64,000 nt of DNA from Candidatus Micrarchaeia archaeon (GCA_038881595.1 JAVZPM010000002.1:59254-123253); one strand, 5' to 3'. Positions 2,997-63,239 are shown, numbered from the stretch's first letter. The notes: generated by a model not told the origin, from the letters alone. Numbers and translations: made by a program.

Positions 2997-3010
2997 CTTT
3001 TAATGTTTAA

Positions 3011-3083
3011 TAGCCCCGACCGGATTCGAACCGGTGTCTCGGGCTCCAAAGGCCCGCATACTTGACCGCTATACGACGGGGCT
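3011..3083 (-). tRNA. tRNA-Gln (anticodon UUG), no intron
   Basis: Reverse complement folds as a 73-nt cloverleaf: acceptor AGCCCCG/CGGGGCT, anticodon stem CGGGC/GCCCG, loop CTTTGGA, T-loop TTCGAAT; CCA not encoded. Confidence 0.85.
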
Positions 3084-3128
3084 ATACAATTATTTATAGC
3101 TAATCAAAATTTTAAATACTTGCTTATT

Positions 3129-5296: not shown

Positions 5297-6715
5297 ATGT
5301 TAGGAAAAGAAAATTTCAAAACAAAAAAATCAAAAATGCAATATAGTAAGCAGAGAAAGGGATTTGTATTTACAATCCTAACCTTAGTTATAATAGTATT
5401 CATGATTATAGAACTTAACATATATTTCAGGACATACGAATTGAAACTTGCTAATGAGCCAACGAAATTAAGGCTTCAGGTAATACAGGATTTCATAAGA
5501 GCATATTCTCCAAACTATTTCAATGAAACTGCATATTCTTTCATTTATTCCTCTTTATATGAACTTAACAAAGATTCAATCCAATATCCACCATCCCAAT
5601 CAAGTTTAGCTGAATTAATTTGGAATATATCTTATTCAGGAAAGAGAACAGACAGCCGTACAGTACAGCTAATAGATCAGACTAAAACACTATCATCTTA
5701 TGATTCAAATCTATCTGCTCTTGCAAAGTCAATGAATATTGATTTGGTTGTTAATTATAAGGATTTCAACATCACACAAATAGATTATTGGACTGTACAG
5801 TACAATTTTACAATTGCAGTTTCAATAAATGATAAAGCATCCAGTACAAGTGTTAAGTTCACTTCTCCTATTTCATTAAACATCTCAATAATTGGATTTG
5901 AAGATCCTTGGCTCGCAAGAATGGGATTCAGAAATAAGAGTATAATACCTGTAGATCAGATTCAGATTGATCAGATAAGGCCTTCCCTTTTAATGAACGG
6001 GACAAGAGGAAGAGGATGGTTTTATGGCGAACCAATAATAGTGACAAGCTGTCCTTCTGCTGATTTTGAATTCAGTGATTCTTTCTTAGAGAATAAGACC
6101 AAGATAATGGTTACAGACAACACAGGAGTTGCTAGGGAATGCGGTCAGCTTTTTGGAGCAGTTATAGTAGTATCTGATCAAAACGCAAACACAAATCCAT
6201 TTGTTGGATTAGATGTCCCATTATTCATAAACTCTTCAGCAAAAATCTCAGATATTCCAAGGCAACCTATCTTAATAGTTTCAGATAACGATACAGTAAT
6301 AACAGATGACAGTTCAGGTCATTATCATTACATGCTTGACATAAACAATCTAAGAAGTGGAATAGAATGCGGAAGATATTTTGTAAGGCCATATAATAAT
6401 TATGGCTATCTAAGAAGGCTCACAAACAACGTTACTGGAGTTTTTGATGAATTTGGTATAGAAACCATTCTGTCAGGTACAACACAAGCAATCCCAACTT
6501 CGAGATCCTCTTATAGTTTTGTTGACAGAGAATACAACTCATCCATCCCCGGTAATCTAATTAAGGGTCTTCCAGGTTGCAGTAATCAATTGATATGCAA
6601 TTATACAAAGGATTATCATTCTTCTTCAATACCTTATCCGACACGATTAAGTACGGATGCAGCTAGATATTATTTAGGTTTATTTAACTCCTCAATGATT
6701 ATAAAAAGAGATTAG
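5297..6715 (+). CDS. Large pilin-like or pilus-associated secreted protein
   Basis: N-terminus RKG|FVFTILTLVIIVFMII resembles a class III signal peptide; large Ser/Thr/Asn-rich ectodomain; co-directional with the following pilin-like genes. Confidence 0.35.
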   Translation: MLGKENFKTKKSKMQYSKQRKGFVFTILTLVIIVFMIIELNIYFRTYELKLANEPTKLRLQVIQDFIRAYSPNYFNETAYSFIYSSLYELNKDSIQYPPSQSSLAELIWNISYSGKRTDSRTVQLIDQTKTLSSYDSNLSALAKSMNIDLVVNYKDFNITQIDYWTVQYNFTIAVSINDKASSTSVKFTSPISLNISIIGFEDPWLARMGFRNKSIIPVDQIQIDQIRPSLLMNGTRGRGWFYGEPIIVTSCPSADFEFSDSFLENKTKIMVTDNTGVARECGQLFGAVIVVSDQNANTNPFVGLDVPLFINSSAKISDIPRQPILIVSDNDTVITDDSSGHYHYMLDINNLRSGIECGRYFVRPYNNYGYLRRLTNNVTGVFDEFGIETILSGTTQAIPTSRSSYSFVDREYNSSIPGNLIKGLPGCSNQLICNYTKDYHSSSIPYPTRLSTDAARYYLGLFNSSMIIKRD

Positions 6716-6716
6716 G

Positions 6717-7169
6717 ATGATAACAATGGGAAATGAATTGTTGTTTAAAGGTCAAATAATGCTTGAAACTCTAATAATAGTCTCATTCCTCTTGCTTATC
6801 CTAATTCCTACTGTAATTTACATCTTGTCTGTTCTTTCCACCGAGTCATGGAAGACAGATGCAAATCAAGCATATTCAACATTGACAAAAATCGTTTCGA
6901 TATCTAACAAGCTAGCAATGCTAGGCAATGGTTCATCTTCTTATGAATCTATATTTCTTCCATCAAGCACTCAACGAATGAATGTATCAAGTGATGGAAG
7001 AGAAATCTTCATTACTTTAAAAGGACCTAAATCAGATGATTTGCAAGTTGTTGCTTTAAGTCCAGTCATTATAAGATTGAATTCAACTCAAGACTGGACC
7101 AATATTAAAGGAGCACAAACACTTATGTTTGTTGTTCAAGATGGAGAGGTAATAATATCAAAAACATAA
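6717..7169 (+). CDS. Archaeal type IV pilin-like protein
   Basis: N-terminus ...FKG|QIMLETLIIVSFLLLIL (G-Q, E at +5, hydrophobic helix). Confidence 0.5.
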   Translation: MITMGNELLFKGQIMLETLIIVSFLLLILIPTVIYILSVLSTESWKTDANQAYSTLTKIVSISNKLAMLGNGSSSYESIFLPSSTQRMNVSSDGREIFITLKGPKSDDLQVVALSPVIIRLNSTQDWTNIKGAQTLMFVVQDGEVIISKT

Positions 7170-16953: not shown

Positions 16954-17256
16954 TTACTCAGCGATTTTTAGAATCTCTGAATCACCAGGTTCTATTATGG
17001 CCATCATAAGTACAGGAAAAGGTTTTCCAGCTAATGATCCTAACTCTAGTGATGGATAATTCAATTCCTTATAAGGAACTTTGGAATTTTTACATATTTC
17101 TATTATTTCATTCTTCAAATTTTTTGGGCAATTTCCAGCTAAAAGTATAAGCTTTGCATTTCCACGTGCAGCTAGATATTTGCAGGTTCTTGTTCCAAAT
17201 TCTACCTTTCCAGTGTCAACGCATATTCTTATTGATTTTTCAATATCTATATTCAT
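16954..17256 (-). CDS. rpl30e: 50S ribosomal protein L30e (eL30)
   Basis: 100 aa, L30e/L7Ae-fold sequence; conserved position after rpoA''. Confidence 0.9.
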   Translation of the reverse strand: MNIDIEKSIRICVDTGKVEFGTRTCKYLAARGNAKLILLAGNCPKNLKNEIIEICKNSKVPYKELNYPSLELGSLAGKPFPVLMMAIIEPGDSEILKIAE

Positions 17257-36306: not shown

Positions 36307-36486
36307 GGGCCAGTAGCTCAGAGGTAGAGCGCTTCGTTCGCATAAACTTTCTTAGAAAGAGAGTTTGATCAAGGAATTTTCTAAGAAACTCTTTATCAAA
36401 TAGTTTCATCAAAATAAGTGATTGAACTTTCCTAACATGAAAGTAGTAAAGTTTCGGAAAACGAAGAGGTCGCGAGTTCGAATCTC
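36307..36486 (+). tRNA. tRNA-Ala (anticodon CGC) with an approximately 108-nt intron at the canonical 37/38 position
   Basis: Exon 1 36307-36342 (GGGCCAG...CTTCG TTCGCA), exon 2 36451-36486 (A CGAAG...CTGGTCC A); G3:U70 Ala identity pair; T-loop TTCGAAT. Confidence 0.8.
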
Positions 36487-36528
36487 GCCTGGTCCATAAT
36501 TAGTATATAATCAATTAGAGAGGTTAAC

Positions 36529-45676: not shown

Positions 45677-45787
45677 GGCCGCAGAGGGGAATCGAACCCC
45701 TGCTTGGAGGTTTCTGCATTTTTGATGAAACTTTCTTTTAGAAAGTTTCTCCACAGCCTCCCGTCCTACCATTAGACGACCGCGGCC
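45677..45787 (-). tRNA. tRNA-His (anticodon GUG) with an encoded G-1 and an approximately 38-nt intron in the anticodon loop
   Basis: Reverse complement: G-1 + GCCGCGG acceptor, anticodon stem GGAGG/CCTCC, loop CTGTGG|intron|A, T-arm AGGGG TTCGATT CCCCT, discriminator C. Confidence 0.75.
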
Positions 45788-52561: not shown

Positions 52562-53179
52562 TCATTCGCTTTCTTCATCTTTATCTCCTTTTCTTTTCTG
52601 ATATCTGCCTCTCTTCTCTATTTCATCCATTTGTCTTACTACTTTTTTCCATTCTTTAAATGTTTTGTACCCTTCTAAAAAATGTTTGAAATTTTTTCCT
52701 ATCGATCTTTTCATTAATAAAACATCTATTGCTCTCTCTTCTGGATCATTTGAAAATTCTGCTAAACCAAAATCTATAATATATGGTTCGTTTTTTACAA
52801 ACATTACATTCGCTGGGGTGAAGTCACCATGTGTTATTCCTATTGAATGAAGTTTAGATAGTATCTTTCCGACTTCTTTGTAATCCTTAGTAGAATTTTT
52901 TCTATCTTTCATTAATTTTCCTTCAAGCCTTTCAAGAATCAACTCGTATCTGCCGGCATGATATATTTTTGGAACATTTATACTACTTTTTAATGCATGA
53001 AGTATACATCTTGCTTCTGTTTTGTTCCTCATTTTTCTAAGTATTTCATCTAATTCGCTTATTCTGTATTCTTTTTTGTCTCTAACTTTTACAACAACAG
53101 GAAGACCGAATAATTCAGAGAAATAGACTTTTGCTTCTGCACCTCTGCTTTTGTAATTCTTTTGTTTACTTTGGCTCAC
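52562..53179 (-). CDS. bud32: Bud32/PRPK-like kinase (KEOPS subunit)
   Basis: Small atypical kinase: GAEAKVY, catalytic HGDFTPANVMF, IIDFGLA. Confidence 0.8.
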   Translation of the reverse strand: MSQSKQKNYKSRGAEAKVYFSELFGLPVVVKVRDKKEYRISELDEILRKMRNKTEARCILHALKSSINVPKIYHAGRYELILERLEGKLMKDRKNSTKDYKEVGKILSKLHSIGITHGDFTPANVMFVKNEPYIIDFGLAEFSNDPEERAIDVLLMKRSIGKNFKHFLEGYKTFKEWKKVVRQMDEIEKRGRYQKRKGDKDEESE

Positions 53180-53862
53180 TCTTCTCCCTTCTTTTCTTTC
53201 AGAACAGTCGGTCCTCTCTTTAAAAATTCACCCAAGCTCTTTGCTCCGCTTTTTGTTATGATGTAAGAACCTGTGAATACTATTGCTGCGACAAATGGAT
53301 TTAATCCGAGTGCCAATGCGCCTATGCTTCCTCCGCCTATCAAGGGTAAAGAGGGTGAAGTGAGCAACTCGGCTATTTTTTCACTTAGCGTAGGTGGCGT
53401 TTTAGTGAATGGATTTATTTCTATTAATGTCTTTCCATTCTTCATAATCCTTACAGCACCATCTTCTTCACTTGAGATTATAGAAATAGTTCCTGGCACT
53501 TCAGATATTCCAAGTGCAGCGCTATGTCTTGTGCCATGTCCTTTGTAATGTTTCGTTTTTTTAATTTGGGCTCCATATGCAATAAGATATCCTTCTTCGT
53601 CAATTATTATTGCACCATCAAGTTCAGCAAGCTTCTTTATTACTGGAAGTATTTTTTTATTGTTTATTTTAACCTTAGTCTTTTCAAGTATATCTGTATA
53701 TAACCATGAATAATATGGTTTAAGATTTCTATTAGTAATTATGAAGAACGAACCTTTTTTTTCCTGTCCAAATTCCATTGCTAGATCAATAACTAACTTA
53801 ACAACGTTCTTCTCTAAATCTATGTCATTAATTATCTTTTCTTTAGTTTTTTTATCTACCAT
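53176..53862 (-). CDS. dacZ: Diadenylate cyclase (DAC/DisA_N domain, DacZ-like)
   Basis: DAC motifs LDGAIIIDEEG (DGA) and GHGTRHSAALGISE (RHR-type); hydrophobic C-terminal region. Confidence 0.8.
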   Translation of the reverse strand: MVDKKTKEKIINDIDLEKNVVKLVIDLAMEFGQEKKGSFFIITNRNLKPYYSWLYTDILEKTKVKINNKKILPVIKKLAELDGAIIIDEEGYLIAYGAQIKKTKHYKGHGTRHSAALGISEVPGTISIISSEEDGAVRIMKNGKTLIEINPFTKTPPTLSEKIAELLTSPSLPLIGGGSIGALALGLNPFVAAIVFTGSYIITKSGAKSLGEFLKRGPTVLKEKKGEE

Positions 53863-53970
53863 TATTTCCCTCTAAAGCAATCTAATATCTATCGTATCAA
53901 ATTGGTCGTATATTATTAATTAGTAGACAAACGTATATAAACTTTAATACTATTTTTTAAAATTTGCAAG

Positions 53971-54969
53971 CTATTTCCATTTTACTAAAAATTCATCAGT
54001 TCTGAACTTAGGTTTTGGAATGATTTTGTTTGGAGATAAAAGGTATTTTCTTTGATTATTCTCATCTAATTTCGATATTAGATAACCGACATATGCAATC
54101 ATTCCACCATTATCTGCATTGAATTCATTTGGTGCTACTCCGAATTTACAGTTCCATTCTTTTGCCATTTCTGAAAGCATTTTTTGCAATCTTTTATTTT
54201 GCGCAACCCCTCCACAGATCGTTATTTCTTTTTTTCCAGTTAACGCTAGTGCTCTTTCTGTTATTTCACACAATGCTGCATACGATGTTTCTTGTAATGA
54301 GTAGCATATATCTTCTATTTTCTCTTTTCCTATTAGTTTTTCTGAATGTGTCAATATCCCGCTGAATGAAGCATCCATTCCTTTTACAGAATATGGCATT
54401 GGTATATACTTCTTTCCATTCAGGGCTTTTTCTTCCACATCTTTTGCATTTTTTAACCCTGCAGATCTTGCAAATGTATCTAACATATTTCCAATTCCAA
54501 TATCAAGTGTTTCTCCAAGAATATGATATTTATTTTCCTTCTTAATAAGTATCTGTGTATTTCCACCACTTACGTAAAGAACAAGAGGATCTTTAAATCC
54601 AGTGAAATATTTAGAGATCTCTATATGTGCAACACAGTGGTTAACACCTACAACAGGTTTATTGAATGAAATTGTAAACGTTCTTGCTGCTATAGATGAG
54701 ATTCTTAGACAAGGCCCTATTCCTGGTCCCTGAGAGAATGATATTAAATCAACATCTTGTAATTTAATTCCAGCTTTTTTAAGAGCCGTTTCCATCACTT
54801 GTTGGAATGCATCTGCATGGTGATCTGCTGTCTTTCTTGGATGGATTCCATACTCAAAAAGCATACTTTTTTCGTTTGCAATTATTCTTCCATTTTTCAC
54901 TATACCTACTCCTAGTGTATGTGCAGTACTTTCAATTCCTAGTACTACTTTTATTCTATTCAGCTTCAT
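53971..54969 (-). CDS. kae1: tRNA N6-adenosine threonylcarbamoyltransferase Kae1
   Basis: LGIESTAHTLGVGIV, FSQGPGIGPCLR and ASKH-fold motifs of Kae1/TsaD. Confidence 0.95.
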   Translation of the reverse strand: MKLNRIKVVLGIESTAHTLGVGIVKNGRIIANEKSMLFEYGIHPRKTADHHADAFQQVMETALKKAGIKLQDVDLISFSQGPGIGPCLRISSIAARTFTISFNKPVVGVNHCVAHIEISKYFTGFKDPLVLYVSGGNTQILIKKENKYHILGETLDIGIGNMLDTFARSAGLKNAKDVEEKALNGKKYIPMPYSVKGMDASFSGILTHSEKLIGKEKIEDICYSLQETSYAALCEITERALALTGKKEITICGGVAQNKRLQKMLSEMAKEWNCKFGVAPNEFNADNGGMIAYVGYLISKLDENNQRKYLLSPNKIIPKPKFRTDEFLVKWK

Positions 54970-55027
54970 ACCTACCTATTCATCTTTAATCCGAGCAATT
55001 TAAATTGTTTTCTGGTTTATTTATATT

Positions 55028-55096
55028 AGATGATGACAATGGATGAATCTGAGTTCTAGTTTGCTAGGACAGTGACGAATGATTGGCGGTCTGATA
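55028..55096 (+). ncRNA. Candidate C/D box sRNA (2'-O-methylation guide)
   Basis: C box AGATGATGA (55028-55036), 12-nt guide, D' CTGA (55049-55052), C'-like TGACGA (55073-55078), 12-nt guide, D box CTGA (55091-55094); intergenic. Confidence 0.4.
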
Positions 55097-55150
55097 AAAT
55101 GAATCATTAAATTATTATATCTTTAAATTTCTTTTTGTCAATATAACTTC

Positions 55151-56731
55151 ATGCTATTTGAACTGATATTTATTCTTGCAGGAGTTGCAATATTTATCTA
55201 TAGTATTGAACAGCTTAGTGATCAGCTCCTGAGAGTTTCAAAAGAAAGACTTAAAGAAATACTTCAAAGATTTACAGATAAACCTATAAAAGCATTAGGG
55301 ACAGGTTTAATAGTAACTGCAATTATTCAGTCCAGTACTGCAACTACTTCTATCTTAGTTTCTCTTGTCAATGCAGGTTTAATATCGTTTGAACAAAGTC
55401 TCGGTGTCATAGCCGGTGCACATATAGGAACAACAGTTACAGCACAACTTGTGGCGTTTAGATTTATGGGATTTGCACCTGTTTTTATATTATTAGGGTT
55501 CCTATTAAGTTTGTTCCAGAGATATAACCTTCTAGGGAAGTCAATCTTTCTTTTTGGTCTTGTATTTTTTGCACTTTCTATAATATCAGAAGCAACAGGT
55601 CCATTTAAAGAGAGCCAAGAATTAAAGGACTTGCTTGTTTCTTTAGATAATCCATTATATTCTATTATTGCAGGTATTGTTTTAACCTTATTACTTCAAT
55701 CCAGCTCAATAGTCACTGCGCTTGCAGTTTTGCTTACGATGGAAGGTTTGATTCCTGTATCCATATCAATTCCATTAGTATTGGGAAGTAACATAGGAAC
55801 CACATCTACAGTTTTATTTGTTTCAAAGAATATGGACATATATGCAAAGAGGACTGCTTACGCGCATTTTCTTTTCAGCACTGTAGGTGTCATTCTTATT
55901 TATCCTTTTCTTAGTGACTTCACTTATTTTGTAAATTCTATAAGTTTTAATGAAGGTTCAGCTGTTGCAAATGCACATACGATATTTAATGTGATGATGG
56001 CTGTTATATTTCTCTTTTCATTGCCTTTTTTCATAAAATTAATAGAGAAATTAACTCCGACTACAGAAAAGCAGATTTTATTCACACCTAAATATATAAA
56101 GAAAATACCACGTGATACAGATCTCGCAATAGAAAAAATAAAACTCGAGTTAATTAATCATTTACAAATATCTAAAGAGATGTTTACAATTGCAACTGAT
56201 ATGATTGCAAATAAGGACATATCAAAATTGCAAACAATAGAGAAGTATGAATCTTTAAGCGACTATCTAGACTCTAAGATAACCAGTGCGCTTGTTGAGC
56301 TTTCTCAAAGAAATCTTACAGAAAGGCAATCTTCTCAGATCGTTATTCTTTCGAAAATATCCAATGAAATTGAAAGATTGGCAGACACTGCTCATGATTA
56401 TGCATATATAACGCAAAAATTGAATGAGAACAATTTAGAGTTTTCAAAAGATTCCATCAGGGACATATTGAAAATAAAGTTCGCTCTTGATGAAATTTAT
56501 GATTTTATTGAATTCAATTTCAATTCAATTAATAATTCTAAATTATCAAAGATAATCAAAATGAGAAAAAATGTAGATAAGCTTATATCTTCTTCGCATA
56601 GATTAAGAATTAAACTGCTTTCAGATGAAAAGATCGGTACGTACTCCACTGTTTTATTTATTGATGCAATTTCTTCTTTTGAGGAAGCAGTTTCAGTTTT
56701 GGTAAGAATATCAAAGAATCTAAAAATGTAA
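55151..56731 (+). CDS. Na+/phosphate cotransporter (NptA type II-like) with C-terminal PhoU-like region
   Basis: Duplicated Na/Pi cotransporter motifs (IIQSSTATTSILVSL and LLQSSSIVTALAVLL) and a C-terminal helical domain. Confidence 0.85.
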   Translation: MLFELIFILAGVAIFIYSIEQLSDQLLRVSKERLKEILQRFTDKPIKALGTGLIVTAIIQSSTATTSILVSLVNAGLISFEQSLGVIAGAHIGTTVTAQLVAFRFMGFAPVFILLGFLLSLFQRYNLLGKSIFLFGLVFFALSIISEATGPFKESQELKDLLVSLDNPLYSIIAGIVLTLLLQSSSIVTALAVLLTMEGLIPVSISIPLVLGSNIGTTSTVLFVSKNMDIYAKRTAYAHFLFSTVGVILIYPFLSDFTYFVNSISFNEGSAVANAHTIFNVMMAVIFLFSLPFFIKLIEKLTPTTEKQILFTPKYIKKIPRDTDLAIEKIKLELINHLQISKEMFTIATDMIANKDISKLQTIEKYESLSDYLDSKITSALVELSQRNLTERQSSQIVILSKISNEIERLADTAHDYAYITQKLNENNLEFSKDSIRDILKIKFALDEIYDFIEFNFNSINNSKLSKIIKMRKNVDKLISSSHRLRIKLLSDEKIGTYSTVLFIDAISSFEEAVSVLVRISKNLKM

Positions 56732-60106: not shown

Positions 60107-60213
60107 GCCCCTGTAGCTCAGCTTGGATAGAGCGACTGTCAGACTTAACTTGTTGTTTTGTCTGGTCGAACCTCCTAAGCAGTAGGTCGAGGGTTCAAAT
60201 CCCTCCGGGGGCG
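60107..60213 (+). tRNA. tRNA, probably Arg (anticodon CCU), with a 32-nt intron at a non-canonical position (32/33)
   Basis: Acceptor GCCCCTG/CGGGGGC, D-arm GCTC...GAGC, anticodon stem ACTGT/GCAGT, T-arm GAGGG TTCAAAT CCCTC; a canonical loop (CTCCTAA) forms only if 60141-60172 is spliced out. Confidence 0.6.
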
Positions 60214-60612: not shown

Positions 60613-61305
60613 ATGAATAAAAAAGAAAAAAGATCCAAACACGATTTGCTTCAGATATTTCCAGGCATATTCAAAATAGACGACAAGTTAGCTACTCTTA
60701 ATGCCTACCCTGGAAATACAGTTTATGGTGAGCGATTAATAGATGTAGAAGATAAAGAATATAGATTATGGGATCCATTCAGATCAAAGCTTGCAGGAGC
60801 AATAAAAAAAGGTCTTAAATCGAGCGGGATAAAGAAAGGAGATTCCGTGCTTTATCTTGGAGCTGCAAGCGGAACAACTTGTTCTCATATTTCAGATATC
60901 ATAGGAAAGAATGGCATTATTTACTGTGTTGAGTTTTCAGAGAGGCCTTTGAGAGATCTTATCTCAGTCTGCGAAATAAGAGACAACATGATTCCGATAT
61001 TGGGTGATGCACGAAAACCTCAAGAATATAAGAAGTATATTGAAAGTAAGGTAGATTTCATATATCAAGATGTTGCACAGCCAGATCAGATAAGAATATT
61101 CAAGCTTAACTCTGACATGTTTTTGAAGGAAGGTGGAGAAGGATTCATATGCATAAAGTCTCAATCAATTGATGTCACAAAGGCATCAAAAGAAGTATAT
61201 AAGGAATCATTAAAAGAACTTAAAGATTATGGTTTTACGATTTTACAGGTGATTGAGCTTTCCCCTTATGATTTAAATCATCTTTTTGTTCATGTTAAAA
61301 AATAA
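60613..61305 (+). CDS. flpA: Fibrillarin-like rRNA/tRNA 2'-O-methyltransferase
   Basis: SAM-binding LYLGAASGTTCSHISDI and a conserved fibrillarin C-terminal region. Confidence 0.9.
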   Translation: MNKKEKRSKHDLLQIFPGIFKIDDKLATLNAYPGNTVYGERLIDVEDKEYRLWDPFRSKLAGAIKKGLKSSGIKKGDSVLYLGAASGTTCSHISDIIGKNGIIYCVEFSERPLRDLISVCEIRDNMIPILGDARKPQEYKKYIESKVDFIYQDVAQPDQIRIFKLNSDMFLKEGGEGFICIKSQSIDVTKASKEVYKESLKELKDYGFTILQVIELSPYDLNHLFVHVKK

Positions 61306-61349: not shown

Positions 61350-62297
61350 TTATTCTTTACATTGTTCCAGTTTTGGATATAAGTAACAATAGGCATTGTT
61401 TATGTATGCTGGATAAATTATATACATGCAATCTACAACAATCATTGGGGTTGTTGGTTTGCCAATAAATGTTTCTGCAAATCTTTCATCAGTTCTTAAT
61501 TCTCCTTTCGGATAGTCATCATTTACACATTTCTTTATCAAATCTATATTTCCTCCGTTTTGTTGAATACACGTTAAAAGTTCTTCTTCAGAAAGGAATT
61601 CTTTCTTTTCATTGTATCTGTTTATTACGCAGGTTTTGAATTCATTGAAATAGTCTTTATCTTTTGTGCATTCATAATATAAAAGCGCAATATATGCAGA
61701 GGAATTTACATTTTCTGTTATGTCTTTATAGGTGTATGTTGAAAGAATCCTGTAGTTTAGTCGTATGTCTTCATTGAATGTTTGAATGAATTTTTTGATT
61801 TCGCTATCGTATTTTATTGACCACGGATCATATGGATCAATATAAACATCAACCGTCTTTTTATCTCCAACGCTGCATCCAATTTCTTTTCCAGTTTTTC
61901 TAATGGTGGAAGGTTCTGATGGTATTACTAGATTTTGGCTTACTTTGTTAATCGTAAAATCATTTGCATTCATCCATAAATCAATATTTACTATTCCATC
62001 TGTTGAGTATCCGTTAATATTTATTTTCCATATTCCATTTTCAAGAGTTTTATTGTTTATAGTGATATTTACTATGCCATAGTATAGATTAAGGAAACGT
62101 ATAGCTCTGTTGTCGATAATAGCCGATGGCCCTTCGTCTCCAAATGGAATTTTGATTCCAAGAACAAATAAAGCAAAAATAAATGCGAATATTACAAAAA
62201 ATAGTAAGTATGGAAAGCTTATTTTTTCTTTTACTTTTTCTTTTACCGAGTGTAGTACCTGTCTTATCTTTGATTTGTTCTGTCTTCTTGATTTCAT
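61350..62297 (-). CDS. Membrane-anchored extracytoplasmic protein with a DsbA/thioredoxin-like region (non-canonical active site)
   Basis: N-terminal TM anchor; VDVYIDPYDPWS aligns to the DsbA-type FxDxxCPxC region with DPWS in place of CPxC; cis-Pro-like TTPMIVV. Confidence 0.35.
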   Translation of the reverse strand: MKSRRQNKSKIRQVLHSVKEKVKEKISFPYLLFFVIFAFIFALFVLGIKIPFGDEGPSAIIDNRAIRFLNLYYGIVNITINNKTLENGIWKININGYSTDGIVNIDLWMNANDFTINKVSQNLVIPSEPSTIRKTGKEIGCSVGDKKTVDVYIDPYDPWSIKYDSEIKKFIQTFNEDIRLNYRILSTYTYKDITENVNSSAYIALLYYECTKDKDYFNEFKTCVINRYNEKKEFLSEEELLTCIQQNGGNIDLIKKCVNDDYPKGELRTDERFAETFIGKPTTPMIVVDCMYIIYPAYINNAYCYLYPKLEQCKE

Positions 62298-62319: not shown

Positions 62320-62865
62320 TTATCTGCATTGCGATAGAAATAAGTTTAATTCAGATTCTGAATTAAAACTTCCAATATGTATCTGAGAATTTTTCAAGCA
62401 TATATATGTAGGAGTGCCTTCCAATTCAAATGAGTTCATGCAATTCATGAATTTGATCAGCTGTTCAGTATTTTCTGTACTTATCATTCTTATATTATAT
62501 TCAGTTTTCATTTTAGCTATCCAAGGGGTGTTCTTCTGTGAATAAACACAATCCTCTCCGTATATATAAATAACTGACTCATTAATTCCATATCCAGTTA
62601 GACATTCTGTAGTTGTTTTTCCAGCACTTTGCTTTATAATTATTGAAACGTTAGTTTTATTCACATTATTAATCTGGCCTTCTTGATTCTCTCTGAATAA
62701 TATAATCAAAGATATAAATGCAATAAACACTAATATAATTAGAACTGCAATTATACTTCTATTCTTGTTATTTATATTACTTGTATTTCTGTTTATTTCC
62801 TCATCCCTTTTCTTGCTTTCTAGCTCTTTAGCTGTTTTTTTCTTTTTATTCTTTTTCTTTGCCAT
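62320..62865 (-). CDS. Membrane-anchored thioredoxin-like protein with CxxS motif
   Basis: N-terminal TM anchor; GEDCVYS (CxxS) and a GTPTYICL cis-Pro loop in thioredoxin-like spacing. Confidence 0.4.
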   Translation of the reverse strand: MAKKKNKKKKTAKELESKKRDEEINRNTSNINNKNRSIIAVLIILVFIAFISLIILFRENQEGQINNVNKTNVSIIIKQSAGKTTTECLTGYGINESVIYIYGEDCVYSQKNTPWIAKMKTEYNIRMISTENTEQLIKFMNCMNSFELEGTPTYICLKNSQIHIGSFNSESELNLFLSQCR

Positions 62866-63003: not shown

Positions 63004-63115
63004 CCCACCGTAGCTCAATCTGGCAGAGCATCTCGCTGTAGTCCAGCCTGTCAGATCCTCTGACAGTCGTTTTGTAGAAACGAGAGGGTTGCTGGTTCAA
63101 ATCCGGCCGGTGGGA
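63004..63115 (+). tRNA. tRNA-Tyr (anticodon GUA) with an approximately 38-nt intron at 37/38
   Basis: Acceptor CCCACCG/CGGTGGG (C1:G72), anticodon stem TCTCG/CGAGA, loop CTGTAG|intron|A, T-arm GCTGG TTCAAAT CCGGC. Confidence 0.75.
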
Positions 63116-63129
63116 CTTGAAAAAAATGC

Positions 63130-63239
63130 GCTTGGGTGGTGTAGAACCTTGTTGCGCAGGTTCTGCGCACATGGTGCACAGTGGTCTAGCATTGCGGCCT
63201 GTCACGCCGCCGACCCGGGTTCGAATCCCGGCCCAGGCG
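63130..63239 (+). tRNA. tRNA-Asp (anticodon GUC) with an approximately 37-nt intron in the D-loop
   Basis: Exon 1 GCTTGGGTGGTGTAG, exon 2 TGGTCTAGCAT T GCGGC CTGTCAC GCCGC...CCGGG TTCGAAT CCCGG CCCAGGC G; the mature 73-nt cloverleaf requires removing 63145-63181. Confidence 0.65.

Follow-up and report, generated by a model that had tools for sequence, protein, structure and literature searches.

The gap of 181 nt between kae1 and the gene of a Na/Pi cotransporter in the metagenome-assembled genome of a hot-spring Candidatus Micrarchaeia archaeon raises the question whether it holds a small RNA gene and, if so, of which class and for which target. The window, i.e. the whole stretch of 64 kb that was analysed, has a G+C content of 30-36 %. 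A sequence-only reading had proposed a C/D box sRNA at 55021-55104, based on the order of the boxes, a guide spacing of 12 nt and the presence of a fibrillarin gene. The features of the locus are compiled in Table 1.

Table 1. Coordinates of the features in the window, with observations on orthologs and database matches
Feature	Position	Strand	Remarks
Kae1/TsaD gene	53971-54969	-	Pfam, 236 bits
TATA-like element TTTAAATT	54999-55006	+	3' edge 23 nt upstream of box C; putative promoter
Box C, AUGAUGA	55030-55036	+	invariant in all orthologs (10 versions)
D' guide CAAUGGAUGAAU	55037-55048	+	12 nt; position 5 upstream of D' is U55044
Box D', CUGA	55049-55052	+	CUGA in 8 versions, CCGA in L052, UUGA in L040
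D'-C' spacer	55053-55072	+	20 nt; hairpin in 55053-55070
Spacer hairpin	55053-55070	+	minimum free energy hairpin; 7-bp stem, 55053-55059 with 55064-55070, loop UUUG
Box C', UGACGA	55073-55078	+	UGACGA, UGAGGA or UGAAAU in orthologs
D guide AUGAUUGGCGGU	55079-55090	+	12 nt; position 5 upstream of box D is G55086
Box D, CUGA	55091-55094	+	invariant in all orthologs
Na/Pi cotransporter gene	55151-56731	+	Pfam, 188 bits
Fibrillarin gene	60613-61305	+	PF01269, 298.9 bits, E 2e-89
L7Ae/L30e-superfamily ORF	16954-17256	-	100 aa
ORF next to fibrillarin	61350-62297	-	315 aa; no Pfam match
ORF next to fibrillarin	62320-62865	-	181 aa; no Pfam match
tRNA-Gln gene	3010-3084		Rfam and ARAGORN
tRNA match	36307-36496	+	Rfam
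tRNA match	45677-45786	-	Rfam
tRNA match	60107-60213	+	Rfam
tRNA match	63004-63115	+	Rfam
tRNA match	63172-63231	+	Rfam; model positions 8-63 only, 57 nt after another tRNA

Box architecture of the element

Box order and guide spacing proved to be exact in the sequence: the window reads AUGAUGA - 12 nt - CUGA - 20 nt - UGACGA - 12 nt - CUGA, and these 65 bases (55030-55094, plus strand) are the core of the interval proposed before. Both strands of the window were scanned for this architecture, with 10-13 nt allowed for the guides, 2-30 nt for the spacer and no more than one mismatch in box C', which returned 55030-55094 as single site; a looser scan again found only this site. The same architecture appeared in none of 300 block shuffles, thus the observation is real and not a chance motif.

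The element has a box C of the RUGAUGA type near its 5' end and a CUGA box D near its 3' end, the C/D motif presents the consensus G-A pairs, and the guides (12 nt each in the window, 11-12 nt in the orthologs) lie within the 10-12 nt of the class. Together with the GA dinucleotides of D' and C' and the register of the internal kink-turn (see below), all defining sequence features of archaeal C/D box sRNAs that were open to test are present. The terminal C/D stem has 0-3 bp and is not conserved, and the folding energies of the whole RNA are not unusual (z of -0.6 to -2.0). Short terminal stems are common in archaeal C/D sRNAs, and an unremarkable folding energy is normal for them. At gathering thresholds Rfam returned only six tRNAs for the window, with no family reaching the threshold at the element. 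Under relaxed thresholds almost all matches in the intergenic region were archaeal or eukaryotic C/D families, the best of these sub-threshold matches being sR2 (30.3 bits, E 4.7e-5), followed by sR3, sR9, sR12, sR5 and sR23. The Pyrococcus sR2 (RF01139) shares the box order, the 12-nt spacing and a similar D guide (GAUGGCGG versus GAUUGGCGG). Its gathering threshold is 42 bits, however, a hairpin of 16 nt is an insertion relative to the model and the D' guide is unrelated, therefore the element is not a member of RF01139. Taken together, the element is very probably an archaeal box C/D sRNA, that is a 2'-O-methylation guide for fibrillarin, encoded by an independently transcribed gene.

Conservation among related Micrarchaeota

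The element was present upstream of kae1 in 14 related contigs, in 10 distinct versions. The closest kae1 relatives of the window are metagenome-assembled genomes of 'Candidatus Micrarchaeia' from hot springs. Upstream of and divergent from kae1 it was located in seven genomes of the GTDB set (L002-L008) as well as in L038, L039, L051 and L052, contigs reached via Kae1 homologs; the Kae1 identity of these loci goes down to 63 %. A covariance model trained on nine versions detected an untrained and more divergent member in L040 and L041, again upstream of kae1 (37.6 bits, E 2e-7). The kae1 loci of two other Micrarchaeota lineages (L042 and L053) did not contain the element.

The alignment has 34 invariant columns, which are the boxes and the core of the D guide, while the flanking sequence has diverged across the genomes. 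In all versions the GA of D' and the UGA of C' are unchanged. The core of the D guide, UGAUUGGCGG, is identical in nine versions and reads UGAUUGGCAG in L040, a single change of G to A. The D' guide was replaced twice, so that three unrelated classes exist among the 10 versions: CAAUGGAUGAA(U/A) in the clade of the window, L007 and L052, CCCCUUA(G/U/A)A(C/U)G in L008, L038 and L051 (class 2), and UAAAGGUGAUCG in L040. Modular replacement of one guide with the other frozen is the described course of archaeal sRNA evolution (PMC7994747), and the ortholog series offers a clean small example of it. The 10 versions show, at the level of sequence, the pattern expected of a C/D box sRNA; fixed boxes and modular guides, next to the non-random architecture and the Rfam matches, support the earlier reading of the locus.

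The gene kind is an ordinary one, and the finding does not change the understanding of the C/D system. It is apparently the first C/D box sRNA described for Micrarchaeota: a literature search retrieved no paper that mentions both 'Micrarchaeota' and 'box sRNA', and among DPANN archaea C/D sRNAs were found only for Nanoarchaeum. For Nanoarchaeum equitans, likewise a DPANN archaeon with a small genome and fibrillarin, but of another phylum, 26 C/D box sRNAs were reported (PMC7994747). Since C/D sRNAs are essentially unannotated in DPANN besides Nanoarchaeum, a conserved syntenic family may serve as seed for finding the rest. These reduced genomes would still invest in guided rRNA methylation, with only one such gene in the 64 kb of the window.

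The internal hairpin and the C'/D' motif

The sequence-only reading had raised two doubts, the long D'-C' spacer and a mismatch in box C'. The first is resolved by a conserved hairpin in the spacer. In all 10 versions the first nucleotide of the hairpin follows directly after the A of D' and its last paired nucleotide stands 2 nt before the U of C', which yields in each case the geometry of a canonical stem, a bulge of 3 nt (NNU) and then the G-A of C'. The bulge of the window version consists of A55071, G55072 and U55073. As this register is kept, C'/D' is predicted to be a full kink-turn with the spacer hairpin as canonical stem, and not a K-loop. The mismatch in C' is likewise resolved, since it lies at the non-critical fourth position, which is C, G or A in the orthologs; the GA at positions 2-3 never changes.

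Nine versions close the hairpin with G-C, L040 with A-U. Two stem pairs change on both sides: column pair 33-51 is CG, UG or UA, and column pair 37-47 has AU in three cases, GC in three and GU in one. Of the stem cells 82.5 % are paired, compared to 29-44 % when one strand was slid against the other. The covariation score was equalled by 39 of 500 shuffles, a weak statistic with only 10 versions. In three contigs (L007 2841-2924; L052 4-87; L038 9867-9948, minus strand) the hairpin is interrupted by a conserved, symmetric internal loop in which G-A/A-G pairs stand in tandem, following the pattern GC-N-GA-GGC...GCC-GA-N-GC, which the window version lacks. This loop may possibly be an extra protein-binding motif.

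Most archaeal sRNAs have a K-loop at C'/D'; the element is thus of interest as an archaeal sRNA with a predicted complete kink-turn in place of the K-loop. The published sequences of MKAsR46 and MKAsR49 of Methanopyrus kandleri also have a stem directly after D' (PMC4644070, Additional file 1), and in MKAsR46 two nucleotides separate the end of this stem from the U of C', which would allow a full C'/D' kink-turn. The guides of these sRNAs are unrelated to those of the element and the organism is a GC-rich hyperthermophile. With this precedent, the full internal kink-turn is a known variant rather than a new one.

Closure of C'/D' by a helix instead of a short loop is also known from eukaryotic box C/D snoRNAs with an internal stem, which differ from the element in a usually degenerate C'/D', longer guides, a long terminal stem and the proteins Nop56, Nop58 and Snu13.

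Predicted targets in ribosomal RNA

Targets were sought on proxy rRNAs, namely those of Escherichia coli (L010) and Natrialba magadii (L037), and on alignments of seven archaeal species together with sRNA lists (PMC4644070 supplements). Contig extension beyond the end of the window and the fetched Micrarchaeota loci contained no rRNA in BLAST comparisons. A perfect target of the D guide reads 5'-ACCGCCAAUCA-3', with the fifth nucleotide, a C, as site of methylation. The favoured target is 16S rRNA helix 40 with Cm at E. coli position 1161, an assignment that we hold tentatively and to which we give somewhat less than an even chance. For the D 12-mer, E. coli 16S 1157-1168 was the top site in 16S and 23S rRNA, with 9 Watson-Crick and 2 G-U pairs; a site in the 5S rRNA scored equally. 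The seven archaeal 16S rRNAs read GGGGAC(U/C)GCC at helix 40 (AUCGCC in M. kandleri) and continue with a stem that varies, where the AAUCA part of the D pairing would lie. The sole variable position of the D core, G in nine versions and A in L040, faces a C/U polymorphism of this site, with ACCGC in M. maripaludis and ACUGC in the others. The targets of the class-2 D' guides (N4-UAAGGGG) fit the 16S segment directly 5' of the helix 40 site (..CUAGGGGG|ACUGCC..), and the D' guide of L040 forms 8 contiguous pairs, at its positions 2-9, with the universal 3' end of 16S rRNA, GAUCACCU. Unbiased tests, including a joint scoring of guide pairs on the rRNAs of E. coli and N. magadii, placed all candidate sites and models at chance level.

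A known guide RNA points to the same site. The dual-guide C/D sRNA sR412 of Ignicoccus hospitalis has a D guide that ends with ...GGUGGCAGU directly before box D, compared to ...AUUGGCGGU in the Micrarchaeota guides and ...AUUGGCAGU in L040; it takes the same register on 16S ACUGCC and predicts the same methylated C. It was assigned to 16S C1147, in its own numbering, at the helix 40 site (Dennis et al. 2015, PMC4644070 supplements). The 5' half of its guide differs because the stem of helix 40 is variable. sR412 comes from another phylum and has another D' guide and a different D'-C' spacer sequence; either homology or convergence may account for the likeness.

If the helix 40 assignment is true, the 16S rRNA of the lineage would read GGGGACCGCCAAUCA-loop-UGAUUGGAGGAAGG at helix 40, UAAGGGG would stand directly 5' of the site in the lineages of L008, L038 and L051, and the 16S rRNA of the L040 lineage would contain ACUGCCAAUCA. 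Sequences to be expected in the cognate rRNA are CCGCCAAUCA, UUCAUCCAUUG and N4-UAAGGGG.

Searches of further collections gave negative results. A scan of JGI metagenomes for ACCGCCAATCAT followed by GAGGAAGG (pattern ACCGCCAATCATN{2,20}GAGGAAGG) had 24 matches, all of them non-rRNA chance matches; as the pattern fixed guide position 12, which was later found to be variable, this is a weak negative. IMG/VR, which holds no rRNA, gave one non-rRNA match for a near-universal 16S 17-mer and none for a 23S pattern. Micrarchaeota 23S rRNA genes carry group I introns (PMC6125680), and the LAGLIDADG protein I-CreI and a profile of its relatives were used as a route to the 23S rRNA, which returned unlabelled proteins; two that were looked up were algal chloroplast genes. 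A full-text literature search for the guide sequences retrieved primers only. Neither guide matched the six tRNAs or anything else in the window, and for the D' guide of the window no convincing site was present in any of the proxy rRNAs. Other target sites were set aside. A D target near E. coli 23S 1071 (GCAGCCAUCAUU) was dropped since it would require an insertion into a strongly conserved region. 16S C1402 (ACCGCCCGUCAC), with 9 Watson-Crick pairs and 1 G-U pair, is unlikely due to an internal C-U mismatch to a sequence that does not vary; the fit becomes worse with the guide variant of L040. The 23S sequence GGGAAACCG followed by a variable helix, viewed by eye, conflicts with the conserved GAC..GCCCGCAG, and the strands of the 23S helix formed by E. 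coli 589-601 and 655-668 were considered by eye only.

The strongest competitor is a C/D box sRNA whose D guide acts on helix 35a of the 23S rRNA (E. coli 782-793, AAGGCCAAUCAA) with methylation of C786, and whose class-2 D' guide pairs with GAG-NN-UAAGGGG near E. coli 600. Here GCCAAUCA is a contiguous match of 8 nt in E. coli 23S rRNA, CCAAUC is kept in six of the seven archaeal 23S rRNAs, and methylation is known to cluster in helices 35 and 35a (PMC4644070, PMC7994747), with guides containing GAUUGG directed to helix 35a in Sac-sR120, Pca-sR59, Iho-sR207, Mka-sR73 and Mka-sR99. The D' target of L008, CGUCUAAGGGG, agrees at 10 of 11 positions with the 23S sequence AGUCUAAGGGG of Tte and Mka (conserved segment GAGUCUAAGGGG), the only place in the 23S alignment where UAAGGGG occurs. 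However, guide positions 2-3 are an unchanging GG that would be mismatched, lying opposite A-G or A-U in every archaeal sequence known, and the known helix 35a guides direct methylation to G784, G785 or U790, none of them in this register. Furthermore, some 180-220 nt lie between the two 23S sites, and the other guide of L040 points to 16S rRNA. An action on helix 35a, which would call for CCGCC in the Micrarchaeota 23S rRNA in contrast to AAGGCCAAUC or similar, is rather unlikely in our view.

A third possibility is a C/D-type RNA that mainly serves another purpose than methylation, e.g. a chaperone for rRNA folding on neighbouring 16S segments or an RNA acting on a tRNA or another target. 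Archaeal dual guides are assumed to link neighbouring segments of rRNA and to have a chaperone function (PMC7994747), the two predicted targets of the class-2 relatives would be directly adjacent on 16S rRNA, and the guides have no perfect match in the proxy rRNAs. On the other hand, the guide spacing is exactly 12 nt, the geometry of the fifth position is kept and fibrillarin is encoded nearby, and neither guide has a match in the six tRNAs or elsewhere in the window. Chaperone activity and methylation are not mutually exclusive, and a role of the first kind without the second as main function appears improbable.

A wider proposal joins both roles. The element would represent a first Micrarchaeota C/D family, locked to kae1, possibly with a bidirectional TATA element, with a D' guide swapped at least twice and a full internal kink-turn; in some lineages its guides would bind adjacent 16S segments at the junction of helices 39 and 40 and act, in addition to guiding methylation, as clamp or chaperone in the reduced small-subunit assembly of DPANN archaea. 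This proposal is speculative, and we see for it a limited chance, well below even.

Candidate protein partners and proposed action

The fibrillarin gene claimed for the window was confirmed by its Pfam match. The search of the 64 kb yielded neither Nop5 nor L7Ae. Usually nop5 and fibrillarin are adjacent in archaea, but in the window no nop5 gene adjoins fibrillarin, whose neighbours are two ORFs on the minus strand (Table 1). The single ORF of the L7Ae/L30e superfamily is situated between a gene resembling RNA polymerase A'' and a KH-domain (NusA-like) gene; its identity to an approximate L7Ae sequence of M. jannaschii is 30 %. By its position, the ORF most likely encodes ribosomal protein L30e and not L7Ae.

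Of the six tRNA genes detected by Rfam, ARAGORN reported only tRNA-Gln. The other five matches are 107-190 nt long or only partly matched, and these genes probably carry introns, one of which would be about 115 nt long. The scan for C/D motifs was negative in these five genes.

For the sRNA the following course of events is proposed. A transcript of about 55026-55098 (plus strand) would start a few nucleotides upstream of box C from the TATA-like element. Boxes C and D would form a terminal kink-turn with a stem of only 0-3 bp, and boxes D' and C' the second, complete kink-turn, with the spacer hairpin as stem and the A-G-U bulge. According to the established model for this RNA class, each kink-turn would bind L7Ae, and a Nop5 dimer would then place two fibrillarin molecules. 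Each 12-nt guide would pair with its target RNA, in which 2'-O-methylation would affect the nucleotide that faces guide position five, counted upstream from D or D'. With G55086 at this position of the D guide, a C is specified in the target. The D guide is thus predicted to act on the 5' side of 16S helix 40 in 5'-ACCG[Cm]CAAUCA-3' (Cm at E. coli 1161), and the D' guide of the window would direct methylation of the A in 5'-AUUC[Am]UCCAUUG-3'. The latter target is probably also located in rRNA, near the D target.

Putative promoter, gene neighbourhood and regulatory alternatives

All 10 versions have a TTTAAA(A)TT or ATTAAAAT whose end is 20-23 nt upstream of box C; the stretch between this TATA-like element and box C is not conserved. 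This arrangement suits an archaeal promoter from which the RNA would begin shortly before box C. The TATA-like element of the window, almost a palindrome, is separated from the start codon of kae1 by about 30 nt; it is probably shared with the divergent kae1 gene and may act in both directions. The transporter would have its own TATA-like promoter element in a second TTTAAATT, about 25 nt upstream of its ATG.

The position of the element, 56 nt upstream of the start codon of the transporter, could also suit a cis-acting kink-turn, bound by L7Ae in the shared promoter region of kae1 and the Na/Pi transporter and regulating a flanking gene. Archaeal L7Ae binds kink-turns in mRNA leaders (PMC5539422). 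Against a leader or cis role for the transporter speaks that the downstream gene is distant or different in relatives: in L007 the transporter lies about 300 nt further away, and L008, L038, L051 and L040 have a different downstream gene. The transporter also has its separate TATA-like TTTAAATT, and a simple site of protein binding has no use for two 12-nt guide modules that are each kept or exchanged as a whole, which leaves little probability for regulation in cis. Least of all can the element be regarded as a chance assembly of box motifs in AT-rich intergenic DNA: the boxes are short and the window has 32 % G+C, but the shuffles and the box-specific invariance amid diverged flanks have already refuted this, and its probability is negligible.

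Some observations on the gene neighbourhood may be added. In L040 the spacer between kae1 and the gene for a diadenylate cyclase (DAC) domain protein (6607-6726) contains a direct repeat of about 16 nt, GATGT(A/G)(T)GGAAATG, in three copies, and GATTGGCG comes after the third; this stretch was considered as a C/D sRNA and rejected, because it does not fit the C/D architecture. In L042 (9006-10001) fibrillarin is the divergent neighbour of kae1, with a tRNA gene and no C/D sRNA in the spacer of 330 nt. The order of kae1, the gene for the DAC-domain protein (PF02457) and the gene for a RIO/Bud32-like kinase is kept in all Micrarchaeota loci fetched, so that the DAC-domain gene stands between two KEOPS genes, in the window (52562-54969, minus strand) as well as in L038, L040, L042, L051 and L052.
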